From assembly GCA_951406725.2 (NCBI GenBank), contig OX597815.1, positions 64,170,001 to 64,234,000 of the forward strand: 64,000 nt of DNA. The letters run 5' to 3'. Shown here one piece after another: positions 21,271 through 61,236 of this stretch; within the stretch, counting starts at the first letter, position 1, and each line of letters opens with the position of its first letter. The translations under genes were made by a program, and so were the position numbers. The notes below the pieces were generated by a model. It did not search any database. It saw only the letters and a list, made by a program, of their open reading frames with translations, and had not been told where the DNA came from. Source of the stretch: Octopus vulgaris (lineage: Eukaryota).

Positions 21271-21494
21271 TGTTATATTTCGGGACGGTCATTTTTTAGT
21301 CCATTCTGGATTAAACAGAACAGGAGTAGACACGTGGGATGGATGAGTCACTGAAGAGGTCGCAGGTGTGTGACGAAAGATTTCCATACAATAGACGTAT
21401 GATAAAATAAAAACAATAATAAACGAGTGAAGAACGAATATATAGTGCGTGTGTTTATTTGGCAAGAAAAAAATGACCACCCCGAAATATAACA
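21271..21494. mobile_element. TGT...ACA terminal-inverted-repeat element with a 6-bp flanking direct repeat and an internal HHR motif (21347-21384, +)
   Basis: tgttatatttcgggacggtcattttt / aaaaatgaccaccccgaaatataaca; atatgt on both flanks; gtca CTGAAGA G GTCGCA ggtg TGTGAC GAAA GATT TC. Confidence 0.7.
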
Positions 21495-23402
21495 ATATGT
21501 TTCAACAAACGACTTCACATTAGGAATCTCGCAAACAAATTTGTAAATGCAATATACATATTCATTTATGTCTATACAAATAAATATATACATACAAAAA
21601 CACATATTACACACATACACTAAGTATTTCAAAAATAATTCAATGCTACAAATATATATTTCTTTTTCTCCTCGTGAGAGTTTGTCAGGCTTTAAAATAA
21701 CATTATCAATTATCCGTATATATATATATAAGGAGAGAGAAAGAGAGTGAAAGAGAGAGTTGTAACAAATATCTAATACTCAAGTAACAATACAAATCCA
21801 AGCTTGAATGTAAGAACGAAGTACTTAGTTGTAAAATAAGATGAGTTCTGTATTATTAAAGGCAAACACTACTCGGCTAATACACACATCGTAAAAGCCT
21901 TGTGAGGTTTCTCAGGTGGAGACGCATCTTAGGTTCAGGTTTTGCAATGTTAAAGTTTTATTGGCCAGTTATAAATGAAGTTTGCCTGTTTTGAAATAAG
22001 ACTTAAAATTTATTGTTTGAAATATATGTGGAGAACGTTTCTTTGGAAGAAAGAAAATAAAAGATTTATAACATATTTTAAATTATATGGAAAGTATGTG
22101 GCTGTAGTAGGTGAATTTTACAAAAACAAAAACAGAACAACTCATTTGGAGGACTTTATTTATGCAAAGATAAAAAAGAAATTGTAATCTATTTTTTAAA
22201 GGATTTCAATATCTGTCACTCAATTTCTATCATATGAACACCCTCATGTTCTCTCTCATTTTTCTCTCTCCCACCCCACCTCTCTCACTGTGTCTTGGAA
22301 ACATAATTCATGCACAGATACACTTTCGTACATAAGTTGACCAAACAAGATGTACCTATGTAGATATGAAAAATCTTTGTTAGATGTATGTATATAGAAA
22401 ACACAGTTTATATGCATAAATTCTGTTGGATGGTCACGGCAAACATTGTGTTTTACTCTAGGTAACAGAGATTTTCAAAAAGTCAAAGCATTGGTTGATG
22501 TGTGGTGAAGATAAGAGAGTACGCTATTAAAAGCATTCCTCTAACTATCAGTATAGTACATTATAGGTTTTAAAGTTTCTGAAAGTTTTCTTTAAGTTAT
22601 GTCCGCAGGAAAAGATTATTTTCCAATGTCTATTTATATGAGTGTTCTTTTCATCAAATATGATTTCGTAGGTGTCTGTAGCGCATAAATTATGCTTTGT
22701 TCCCCTTATATAATCTAGCATTCGTAATTATATTCCATTACATATTTTATAGTTAATTTTTGTTTTACACTTCTCATATAAATGAGAATAATGAGCTGTC
22801 TTTATTTCTAGCTTTGTTACGAAAAAATGTGTGTGTTGGTTATAGCGATGTTTGAATTGATGTTTGAATTGTACATACATACATACATACATACATACAT
22901 ACATACATACATGCGTATGTATGTGCATATATATATATATATATATATATATATATATACATATATACACACGCATATACATACATACATACATACATAC
23001 ATGCGTATGTATGTGCATATATATATATATATATATATATATATATATACATATATACACACGCATATACGCTTACATATATATAGTGAGTTAGAGTGAG
23101 GAGAGATAGATTAGTTTTTATTGTGCATTGGTATGTTATGTAATTAAGAAGCTTCCCTTTAATGAACATATGGTACTGCTTATGGAGTTGTAGTTACTAT
23201 TGGTTGTATTGATATTTCAATGAGTTTGAAGAATTTTAAAGAAATTTATGTTTACAATGTTTGCTGTGGTAGAATTCATGAATTTGATTATGTTTGTACC
23301 GAATATTTGGCGGTGTTTATAGAGAAAATGGAGGTATTTAGCAAATAAGTTTTGAAAAATATTTGCTATTGTGGTTCTTACTGCAATATTAGAGTGATGT
23401 TT

Positions 23403-23623
23403 AAGGCGGCGAGGTGGTAGAGTCGTTAGCACGCCGGGCAAAATGCTTAGTAGCATTTCAATGTCACTATATTCTGAGTTCAAATTCGGCAAGTCCACTT
23501 TGCCTTTCATCTGGTCGGGGTCGATAAAATAAGTATCATCTGAGCACTGGGGTCGATATAATTGACTTACCCGCCAACAACTGAAATTACTGGAGTCGTG
23601 CCAATAATTTAAAATCAGTATTA
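23403..23623 (+). mobile_element. SINE family A
   Basis: aaggcggcgaggtggtagagtcgttagcacgccgggc...ttgcctttcatctggtcggggtcgataaaataagta. Confidence 0.85.
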
Positions 23624-24099
23624 AAGTGATGTTAATATTAAGTTTTTTGTCTTCTTGAGGAAAATGGCGTCGCTTCAGATAATTATTGGGGAAAAGAAAC
23701 ACGTGTGAGATTAGAAACCATAATTTCGTCCACCAATAATTTTGCCATGACCTTCATTGTCTATATTGCTTACATGCATATATGCGCACACCAACACACA
23801 CACACGTATGTGTGTCTGTGCGTGCGTGCATGAGTGTGTGTGTATGTATATGTATGTATGTTTAAATATATGCGTGTATATTTATGTAGTGTATATATGT
23901 AAGTGTAGAAGTAAATATAGATGGATATGCATGCATAAGATATGATAGAGGCAATTATGCGGATAGGCAAATTAGATAATTAAATATATTAAGTATAATA
24001 GATATATCAAATATAATATTTTGGGTATGAAATATAAAATATATATATATTTGTGTACATGCAAAACGAGAGAAAGCAAAAGGTGGAGATCTTTAGACG

Positions 24100-24320
24100 A
24101 TGGATTTTTACGACAGAGAAACTTAAAGTGGTGGAAGAAAGCTGTTTCTGAGGGATTGGAGATCCATAATAATGTTGGAAGATGCAGTTCATCAGAATAT
24201 GCAGCCATAATGGATGCAATTAATGTTGGATAAGACAAGCTTCCGTCATCAGGGTAGAGAAGATCTTACAATTACGCATAAATATACGAATATGATTCAA
24301 AGACAGCGTCTAACAGGTCA
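24100..24320 (+). pseudogene. Highly decayed RTE-like RT fragment
   Basis: EKLKVVEESCF*G...NNVGRCSSSE resembles the 'EVV.EF.YLGS.I..G.CS.EI' region of RTE RTs. Confidence 0.4.
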
Positions 24321-58700: not shown

Positions 58701-60159
58701 CTGCTGCTGACTCTCTCATTTTGTTGTAAAAGCTTTCTCCATCGTTCCATATGTTTTTCGAATGTGAGGAAACTGATTTTCAGTCTGACTATTATTCAAT
58801 GAAGTGCATTCATTGATCCTTTTGGAATGTCTACCACGTACCGAGGTGATAAAATAAGGTCAGTTTATTTTCTGTTTTTTTTTTTAATATTTCTATTTCC
58901 TGTTTATTACATCGTTTAACTCCAAGACAAAAATAACTTCATGTTATATTGGAACCGCACCGATAAACTGCATTGAATAAAGCGACACACTTGAATACAC
59001 AAATAATCGCAACAAAGTTTTTGAAAATTACTATTTCAAGAAGAAAAGTAGCAAAACTAACTACACAATTAACAGCAACATCAATAATAATAAACATAGT
59101 TTGTCAAACGAAAGTTCGCAAACACTAACCACATCCCATATTCTGCAAGTGAACTTTCTAATAAGCAAACTTTGGATATGTAACACTTTCCTGAAAGCAC
59201 CAAAGCATGGCAGGATTTGGTTCGCAGGTCAAGCGCCTCTCTGCTTGACATTATCAAATAGTCATGCAAGAGGATGTGTGTATCTGTGCCTTGCCAAAGC
59301 CATAAAGTTTTCCTTTTTTTCATCCAAGGAAGACCTGGAGAACGCCCTGGCAAACATGTTAAGAAAATTTTACTTATTTGGAGTGAACGTGGGTGTATGG
59401 TTCTATATAAACCATCTTCAAAACCACAAAAGTCAAAAACGTATGAAGAACAGCAGCCAGTAACCTAGAGGAATACTAAGGTCACAATCAAAGCAATGGT
59501 GAGAGCATTAACCTTGGAGCGTGGTAATTCTGTATCACAATATGAGTAGGTGGTCAGGTGTGACGTAAATTTCATCGATGTGTAGATGCGGAGGTATAAG
59601 GCCACATGACTCGGTAGTACTACAAAATTGTACCAGAATTTTCCTCTGTAAAGGGTACTGAGAGAAAGGCCTTAAAACTCGACTTCAAGGGCAGGTAACT
59701 CAGCTGCTGCATGTGTGGCAGTAAAAGTCATTCAAGTGCTTTACCACCCAACATCTTAAAATAACAAACGGAACGTTGCTGGTTTTGGAGTAGATATCGC
59801 AACGCCAGACAGCTCACGGTCCAGCTCTGGCGCTGTCAGATTTAGCCATTCCTCATTACCAGGAGATAAACAAGAGATTCAAGTACTGCTTTTCAGTTAC
59901 AGTCAACGAAGACATTGAGAGCCATTCAAAACATAAACAACAACCGGAAGTGGTTAATGGAGGCGTTGACATCGGGGATGATAGCTCTGACTTTTTAAGG
60001 CCTTCACAGCAGTAGATTACATTCTTCCATTATGTCTGAAAATAAATGCTTATTTTCAGACATAATGGAAGAATGTAATCTAGCGTAATCTCAATTTGTT
60101 ATAAGGGAGGTCACATTGGTTTTTGTTTTATGCATGAACTGTTGCTTTGATGATTTCTT

Positions 60160-60392
60160 ATTTTTTTACTGCCCACAAGGGGCTAAACATAGAGGGGACA
60201 AACAAAGACGGACAAAGGGATTAAGTCGATTACATCGACCCCAGTGCGTAACTGGTACTTAATTTATTTACCCCGAAAGGATGAAAGGCAAAGTCAACCT
60301 CGGCGGAATTTGAACTCAGAACGTAACGGCAGACGAAATACGGCTACGCATTTCGCCCGGCGTGCTAATGTTTCTGCCAGCTCGCCGCCTTA
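60160..60392 (-). mobile_element. SINE family A, young full-length copy
   Basis: Minus strand aaggcggcgagctggcagaaacattagcacgccgggcgaaatg...ccccttgtgggcagtaaaaaaataag; same tail as the 12379 copy. Confidence 0.9.
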
Positions 60393-61189
60393 ATGCTTTG
60401 ATGATTTCTACGAAGCATTGATATAAACCACTTAATGACACTTTCGAAGAGGAATTAAAGTTCGAAACATGACATCTATACTATAATGGAGAAAGCTACT
60501 TATTAATTAGGCATGTAACAATTTATAATAGTATTAAAAGAAAGCAATTATTAAAGGGCTGACCGTCTGGAAATATTTTTATAAATTTGTATTCTAAAAA
60601 TTTCCTATAATTTCGATTTCTCAAATGTTTTAACTCCAATTTCTCGCAAATTTAAATATTCATCGCATTCATTGCGGAGTATTCCATTTTCATTTGCAAA
60701 GTCTCTCACTTACCCTTTGAGTTTTAATTAGCTATTTGGAAAAACCGACAGTTTATTCTATTAATGTATACGAATGTAAAAACATTCATTGAATCAATTT
60801 TTTTTTCAAATACTTGTATAATTTTTGATAGCTTGTGAGAAGAGCCTAGAAAGTTGAGTAATTACTATTATAAGACGAGGAGAAAAAGTTACCAACAAGT
60901 ACTCGAAACTTGCACCTTATTCACAGTTTCCAAACACTCTGTACCAAGCCAATACATACACAAACAAGTTGCACGAGCGATTTTAACAGTGACACACACA
61001 CACACACACACACACACACACACACACACACATACACACTCGCGCACACACACCAATACACACTCGCGCACACACATAGATACACATACACACAAATGAA
61101 AGGCAATGAATGTGTGTGTGTGTGTATGTGCGTGTGTGTGTGTGTGTGCTCACTGACAAAACTTCGTGCTGCATCACTTTTAAGAAGTT

Positions 61190-61236
61190 TGTCAGTGAAC
61201 AGGTCGCGGTCTGAAAGCGACGAAAACATTTTGACA
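61190..61236 (+). ncRNA. Minimal hammerhead ribozyme motif, G3-C8 variant
   Basis: tgtca GTGAACA G GTCGC ggtctgaaa GCGAC GAAA ACAT TT tgaca; preceded by an inverted copy of its own 5' end (61150-61165). Confidence 0.65.

Follow-up and report, generated by a model that had tools for sequence, protein, structure and literature searches.

A predicted hammerhead motif with a family-wide G3-C8 core pair in the terminal repeat of an octopus Penelope-like retrotransposon

The 64,000-nucleotide stretch of Octopus vulgaris DNA analysed here (the window; contig OX597815.1, positions 64,170,001 to 64,234,000) carries at 61195 what is probably a minimal type I hammerhead, distinguished by a G3-C8 pair throughout its family and housed in the terminal repeat of a Penelope-like retrotransposon (PLE), the window copy itself likely being inert cargo of a Helitron-type element. 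Judged by its sequence, the G3-C8 family, family B below, is a very common jumping-gene family with a predicted self-cutting RNA, the core of which has two paired letters exchanged across the whole family. A first-pass annotation had singled out two 17-mers, 21347-21363 (gtca-CTGAAGA-ggtcgc) and 61191-61207 (gtca-GTGAACA-ggtcgc); they read exactly as claimed, and their sole differences are hammerhead positions 3 and 8. The motifs that contain them, designated by the coordinate of nucleotide 3, are:

61190 to 61236, + strand: minimal type I hammerhead motif (G3 61195, C8 61200, extra G 61202, stem II 61203-61207/61217-61221, U17 61231), predicted cut 61231/61232
21347 to 21389, + strand: decayed C3-G8 minimal hammerhead (C3 21351, G8 21356, C17 21384; stem I lost; private G21362)

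The 5-bp stem I and 5-bp stem II described for the 61195 motif are present (61190-61194 with 61232-61236 and 61203-61207 with 61217-61221, respectively), as is G12-A13-A14 (61222-61224); stem III occupies 61225-61230, ahead of U17, and a single unpaired G at 61202 separates A9 from stem II. At 61227 a T-to-C change private to this copy disrupts the 6-nt palindrome of stem III. The 21351 motif is devoid of stem I, with a pair probability of 0.0 in the fold model. The supposed identity of context holds for the two 17-mers within the window but is partly coincidence: G21362 is private, with A in 28 of 28 counted relatives and G in none (30 loci minus the window's own locus and one duplicate), and A21350 is a minority state in its family (family A), where G is found in 23 of 30. 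Compared family to family, the contexts thus differ at four of the 17 positions instead of two. The same loose hammerhead scan of the window returned 14 candidates, so that core and stems by themselves are weak evidence and the family data carry the case; among the best 150 of 401 matches in an Rfam scan of the window, all were microRNA models on microsatellites and none was a hammerhead.

Collecting genomic copies, the course that the first-pass annotation had proposed, established G3-C8 as the state of the family and not the decay of a single copy. The motif pattern has 7,703 exact matches in the genome versus 0 for the reversed control; the 61195 motif belongs to a repeat family and is therefore not a chance occurrence. 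G3-C8 was present in 98 of the 100 young copies listed (1,962 matches) and in 75 of the 100 older copies listed (214 matches), with C3-G8 in none of those listed in either set. A ribozyme-independent collection via a downstream motif, in which 28 of the 96 copies examined were too short, yielded G3-C8 in 60 of 68 informative copies and C3-G8 in 0. Position 17 was U in 80 of 80 informative copies, which provides an N-U-H cleavage site, and in four of four sequencing runs (contigs; reads of at least 85% likeness) no alternative letter was found at 5% or above at positions 3, 8 or 17.

The remainder of the core is kept: a Watson-Crick 3-8 pair, U4, G5, A6, A9, G12, A13, A14 and A15.1-U16.1, along with G10.1-C11.1 and the extra nucleotide after A9. 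Copies linked to the open reading frame (ORF) possess a 7-bp stem I and a 5-bp stem II (pair probabilities of 0.94 and 0.996) and a 6-nt stem III palindrome, one copy lacking a base. With G3 and C8 in place of the literal core box C3-U-G-A-N-G8-A, family B would be missed by a CUGANGA descriptor, as had been anticipated; this lowers its status as a canonical member, not the view that it works like a hammerhead. A tandem 166-bp array of nine lies at locus L211. G3-C8 families of independent origin, with different stem III palindromes, were also sought; the 63 matches, against 39 in the control, were mostly an unrelated repeat and none was convincing.

Around the 61195 motif, the following parts of the element were delineated:

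61184 to 61657, + strand: family B PLE terminal repeat (pLTR) and tail, split by a MITE; at about 61657 the homology with the full-length PLE stops
61147 to 61175, - strand: truncated head of the PLE terminal repeat in inverted orientation, matching the reversed family 5' end at 97% and pairing with 61184-61202
61267 to 61534, no strand assigned: MITE in the pLTR, with 22-bp terminal inverted repeats and an 8-bp target duplication bearing one mismatch

This MITE is common to six further loci of the 30 aligned. The G3-C8 motif flanks a 1,025-aa RT/GIY-YIG ORF and lies about 1 kb downstream of it, on the same strand, in 29 of 30 loci; among more diverged ORF loci an intact downstream motif was found in only 2 of 9, both G3-C8. 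A full-length pLTR-ORF-pLTR arrangement is present at locus L130, and the ORF start falls inside the pLTR. The C-terminal GIY-YIG endonuclease of the ORF matches PF01541 at 25.4 bits against a cut-off of 22.6. Its RT part carries a YVDD motif and has RT-family look-alikes at 0.95-0.96, with RVT_1 on 30% and 48% of cluster members; the part itself gave neither a Pfam RVT match nor a PDB match. Family B shows the pLTR-ORF-pLTR layout, optional tail and inverted 5' copies of EN+ Penelope-like elements, and a Cys motif is present in its RT-EN linker. In passages of PMC8557442, Neptune/Nematis-type EN+ PLEs share the C-terminal GIY-YIG, Cx3Cx2C in the RT-EN linker, inverted 5' copies, an optional tail and (TA)n neighbours, a likeness in features.

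The 21351 motif resides in the terminal repeat of a second PLE family:

21307 to 21547, + strand: family A PLE terminal repeat (to about 21498) and tail (to about 21547), from start and end tallies, with endonuclease fragments upstream at loci L059 and L230
21267 to 21297, - strand: truncated family A 3' end in inverted orientation, placed head-to-head to the pLTR, from a self match at L031 and the sequence

Family A is C3-G8 in 26 of 30 copies and C17 in 29 of 30. Endonuclease fragments of the two families are 49-56% identical, which supports the window's two motifs as probable homologues from sister PLE families, a link that rests on two such fragments. Stem II of family A differs from that of family B by a compensatory A-U/G-C pair difference, and position 17 is U in family B versus C in family A. 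U17 likely avoids a G3-C17 mispair; PMC3884650 reports higher activity for a G3-C8 variant when position 17 is G rather than C. An ancestral C3-G8/C17 core would have given way to G3-C8/U17 in the family B master lineage, where the fold would then have stayed under purifying selection.

The subfamilies of family B bear on that selection. Between five subfamily majorities, none of the 40 structured positions varied, against 23 of the 152 others (p=0.005); with the Helitron group removed, the counts were 0 of 40 and 16 of 152 (p=0.026). The groups in this test are related, two of them with only 4 and 10 rows, and indels are ignored; older copies include a 2-nt insertion in stem I. Since structured positions are invariant across subfamilies, the sequences point to selection on the fold acting in master elements. 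Neutral hitch-hiking would mean that a single master element acquired both changes in a ribozyme it did not need and then multiplied with no selection involved; this is disfavoured, and we judge it rather improbable. Copy number does reflect amplification of masters rather than selection, PLEs of the Naiad type spread without canonical hammerheads (in passages of PMC8557442), and 7 of the 100 older copies listed are G3-G8. Yet two random core changes would fall on 3 and 8 and restore Watson-Crick pairing only about once in 165 (1/55 x 1/3, hand arithmetic), loop II is variable while core and stems are not, and stem II covaries between families A and B. The G3-G8 copies were considered as a single sub-lineage, which their mixed contexts did not support. 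That a fold is selected does not in itself prove catalysis.

Self-cleavage of the family B motif after U17 is a prediction of the model. The 5' ends of family B copies lie 52-61 nt upstream of the predicted cut in 46 of 96 cases, and no pile-up of insertion 5' ends was seen at the cut, where 3 alignments of the 96 copies start within 2 nt; inspected by eye, one is a deletion, one a degraded copy and one an inversion junction. Such clustering upstream would suit a hammerhead-shaped fold kept for a non-cutting role, as a protein-binding handle or a 5'-end folding or dimerisation signal, with catalysis vestigial. Two papers lean the same way: lizard PLE catalytic mutants insert normally (PMC11167929), and PMC4209133 reports low activity and leaves room for other functions. 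Against it, pairing of 3 with 8 occurs in the conformation that is catalytically active (PMC3884650, in part), and a compensatory 3-8 exchange with the other core positions and N-U-H kept fits active-site selection better than a generic handle. We consider a purely non-cutting role unlikely.

Our tentative reading, to which we give not quite an even chance, is that the active site has been rewired naturally at three positions in family B (G3-C8/U17 for C3-G8/C17) and cuts all the same, the family being a young retrotransposon whose thousands of copies are invisible to CUGANGA descriptors. In the favoured explanation overall, RNA of an active element would fold and, by way of its 6-nt palindrome, dimerise; cutting after U17 would be slow and would likely require the element's protein, and uncut RNA would serve as template for most reverse transcription. 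In PMC11167929, cleavage by the lizard PLE hammerhead needs protein, uncut RNA is the main insertion substrate, and a C3G/G8C double mutant partly restores cleavage. Family B resembles the PAc Poseidon C3G/G8C mutant of that paper in its core swap, the position of its pLTR near the ORF start and its tail, and the uncut RNA that is the main template of PAc Poseidon is proposed as such for family B. Engineered G3-C8 cores are laboratory mutants in the sections seen of PMC11167929 and PMC3884650, whereas family B is natural, fixed in thousands of copies and known from sequence.

Natural relatives were described by Cervera and de la Pena in 2014 (PMC4209133) as min-HHRs in pLTRs of metazoan Penelope-like elements, including a Schistosoma mansoni U3-A8 variant. 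Family B shares with them, as far as the consulted text goes, the type I layout, an unpaired nucleotide between 9 and 10.1, G10.1-C11.1, a short palindromic helix III, the pLTR location, mostly solo copies and a covarying 3-8 pair. It differs in U17 and in having G3-C8, which goes unmentioned in that text, rather than C3-G8 or U3-A8. The core variants in the consulted part of Perreault et al. 2011 (PMC3088659) also include a natural compensatory 3-8 change, but U3-A8 only. We found no report of a natural G3-C8 family in full-text literature; the supplements of PMC4209133, PMC3088659 and PMC8557442 and further hammerhead papers may hold cases.

The window copy lies within a larger mobile element:

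60475 to 62917, + strand: non-autonomous Helitron-type element carrying the 61195 motif (2,443 bp; starts A/TC, ends in a hairpin and CTAC/T, family CTAG/T)
62878 to 62917, + strand: Helitron-type 3' hairpin and terminus, from shared 3' ends

The ends are sharp and common to its copies. The A/TC junction was found in 17 of 30 copies collected by the Helitron 5' end; CTAG/T was exact in 8 of 15 3' ends, with T at the fifth place in 15 of 15, the window copy reading CTAC/T. TC after A at the 5' end, a 3' hairpin and CTAG before T are traits of non-autonomous Helitrons in passages of PMC4778049, and the foreign interior resembles the Helitron cargo capture treated in part of PMC6431247, the cargo here being a PLE terminal repeat with a hammerhead. 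The motif is lacking from 12 of the 30 copies, none of which presented a clean empty site. The interior past the tail was considered as a continued PLE ORF and rejected, since the full-length PLE continues differently and the guessed pattern matched nothing; the 5-bp stem I variant as Helitron-specific decay was likewise rejected, as it occurs in plain PLE copies too. One insertion, comprising inverted head, pLTR and tail, would have landed in, or been captured by, a Helitron; its later copying would have been at the DNA level, where the ribozyme is not under selection.

That the window copy is itself an active, selected ribozyme, for instance one co-opted by the Helitron or the host, is very improbable, even though its core and stem II are intact and stem I has a pair probability of 0.83 for an RNA starting at 61184. 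In the fold model this probability falls to 0.0 with the upstream inverted repeat, as 61147-61175 sequesters stem I and core; with the change at 61227, the copy has neither a free stem I nor a palindromic stem III. Helitron-borne copies decay neutrally, with 49 of 599 structured and 104 of 1,448 other sites changed (p=0.46, 15 copies). The copy is likely inert cargo inside a non-autonomous, DNA-copied Helitron-type element, and the earlier argument that the double change reflects selection on the catalytic fold carries over to the master elements, through cross-subfamily conservation of the fold, but not to this copy. The nesting is a caution: amplification at the DNA level can yield copy number and a 'family consensus' without selection on RNA.

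Natural U3-A8 covariation has already been published, and G3-C8 appears only as a laboratory mutant in the literature found, part of it seen as excerpts. With a natural G3-C8/U17 core that is fixed, the evolutionary case for the 3-8 pair would be complete, and such a family would show that descriptor searches miss whole high-copy families. The young ORF and the C3-G8 sister family would offer a ready test system for why PLEs keep hammerheads that are dispensable for in vitro transposition. Because the inserted RNA is mostly uncut, families A and B would, if the G3-C8/U17 motif does cut, be a natural pair for testing the purpose of the PLE hammerhead.

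The first-pass annotation had described a G3-C8 hammerhead at 61195 and a C3-G8 counterpart at 21351 in identical context (hammerhead core numbering; predicted cut after U17). Both 17-mers are exact in the sequence, and the minimal type I layout at 61195, with 5-bp stems I and II, can be read directly from it.

Features of the 61195 site and its terminal repeat (pLTR)
61190-61194 and 61232-61236: stem I of the minimal type I hammerhead motif
61195: G3
61200: C8, with one unpaired G in the motif
61203-61207 and 61217-61221: stem II, with GAA and a 6-nt stem III completing the motif
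61231: U17
61267-61534: MITE within the pLTR, flanked by an 8-bp target duplication; it has 22-bp TIRs and contains telomere-like CCCTAA repeats

The genome searched for relatives comprised 2.8 Gb in 227 contigs. The 21351 and 61195 sites belong to different dispersed repeats (1,722 and 1,508 first-look candidates; 40 scored each), here the sister Penelope-like (PLE) families A and B. That G3-C8 is the family B consensus was borne out: the G3-C8 pattern returned 7,703 exact matches and its reversed control none. When positions 3 and 8 were unconstrained, G3-C8 was present in 98 of the 100 young copies listed out of 1,962 matches and in 75 of the 100 older copies listed out of 214; C3-G8 was present in none of them. 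In a ribozyme-independent sample of 96 copies, found via a motif downstream of the ribozyme, the core was reached in 68; 60 of these were G3-C8 and none C3-G8. Family A is canonical, with C3-G8 in 21/27 copies of one sample and 26/30 of another; the latter contained G3-G8 once and G3-C8 never. G3-G8 also occurs in 7/100 older family B copies in mixed contexts (loci L329-L334 and L024); these copies may have arisen repeatedly or may descend from an old intermediate master.

In the main-text literature searched, G3-C8 was found only as an engineered variant. In the lizard PAc hammerhead, PMC11167929 reports partial rescue by C3G/G8C. In the minimal pLTR hammerheads already published (PMC4209133, PMC3088659), A9 is followed by one extra nucleotide, helix III is palindromic and U3-A8 occurs as a natural variant. 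An inverted pair of U3-A8 motifs with palindromic stem III lies at another octopus locus (L140:4184-4370, G000:C4); this pair is another core variant in the same genome. Elsewhere in the window, 28214-28290 (+) and 42036-42100 (+) each hold a hammerhead-like motif of the C3-G8 type, in which loop II is long and stem III short.

The claim of identical context stood in part. The perfect flank match is partly luck, because G21362 is private to the window family A copy (A in 28/28 counted relatives), its A21350 is a minority state (G in 23/30) and its stem I is lost. The comparison is nevertheless meaningful, because related GIY-YIG ORFs lie upstream of both families; family A endonuclease fragments match the family B protein at 56% over 34 aa (L059) and 49% over 61 aa (L230). 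Three differences separate the families: the 3-8 pair is C-G in A and G-C in B, a stem II pair is A-U in A and G-C in B, and position 17 is C in 29/30 family A copies and U in 80/80 family B copies. Pairing of G3 with C17 could lock the RNA into an inactive fold; PMC3884650 states, without data shown there, that the activity of a G3-C8 variant is higher when position 17 is G than when it is C. We infer that U17 in family B was selected to avoid G3-C17 pairing.

The majority of family B copies consist of a solo terminal repeat of ~150 bp with an optional ~60 bp tail, often adjoining (TA)n and frequently with an inverted head. At 29/30 loci the G3-C8 motif lies ~1 kb 3' of a GIY-YIG ORF on the same strand. 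At one locus (L128) YVDD, a Cx3Cx2C linker and GIY-YIG all occur in a frame of 1,025 aa; another (L130) is organized pLTR-ORF-pLTR with one motif per repeat, and the ORF starts within the pLTR, 3' of the predicted cut. Reverse transcriptase (RT) identity rests on motif and language-model look-alikes only, with no RT match in Pfam or PDB. By description, these features fit an EN+ PLE of the Neptune/Nematis type, as outlined in PMC8557442. L092:3982-7288 (+) holds another, distinct PLE-like ORF with RT and GIY-YIG, which shares ~22% identity with the protein of family B.

Family B 5' ends cluster just 5' of stem I, with 46/96 copies starting 52-61 nt ahead of the predicted cut; among the 96, three alignments start ≤2 nt from it, none of them a clean insertion end by eye. 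RNA that was inserted had therefore mostly stayed uncut. This resembles the lizard PAc element, for which PMC11167929 describes mostly uncut RNA being inserted and hammerhead cleavage only with protein. Dimer cleavage would be best served by a tandem array such as that at L211:90-1480 (G000:C2), which has nine G3-C8 copies at ~166-bp spacing in the stretch examined.

The window copy itself travels in a 2.44-kb non-autonomous Helitron-type element. Its nearest relatives share homology from 60475 to ~62917, with PLE homology ending with the tail at ~61657; the 5' junction A|TC (17/30 copies) and the 3' hairpin plus CTAG|T (8/15) are Helitron termini as given in PMC4778049. Copies found via the Helitron 5' end carry the motif in 18/30; the remaining 12 appear deleted or truncated, and a clean empty site sought among them was not found. 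The Helitron arms are absent from all 30 family B loci sampled in genome order (25 distinct places), which makes the Helitron-borne form a side branch. In the window copy a private change at 61227 disrupts the stem III palindrome, and in a fold model that includes the inverted head upstream, the pair probability of stem I drops to 0.0 from 0.83; this copy is likely inert. Its MITE is common to six other loci, making three layers of mobile DNA (MITE in pLTR in Helitron). A Helitron subtype (L004, L014, L026 and similar) keeps a longer inverted pLTR copy, with two hammerhead motifs head to head. Just 5' of the Helitron lies a near-perfect 70-bp palindrome (60013-60082), and a SINE-like repeat at 60159-60391 has eight further matches in the window and is inserted also in several Helitron copies; 63101-63200 is 100 consecutive N.

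Selection on the fold, as first proposed, is supported for master elements but not for inserted copies. Among five subfamily majorities, 0/40 core and stem positions vary vs 23/152 others (p=0.005), or 0/40 vs 16/152 without the Helitron group (p=0.026), for groups that are related, two of them small (4 and 10 rows), and counting substitutions only; an older lineage carries a 2-nt insertion in stem I. In 15 Helitron-borne copies structure is no better kept (49/599 structured sites changed vs 104/1,448 others, p=0.46). The window's G3-C8 copy is a passenger. The swap itself is real: family B as a whole carries it, as a natural variant of a ribozyme already known, in an element of a known type.
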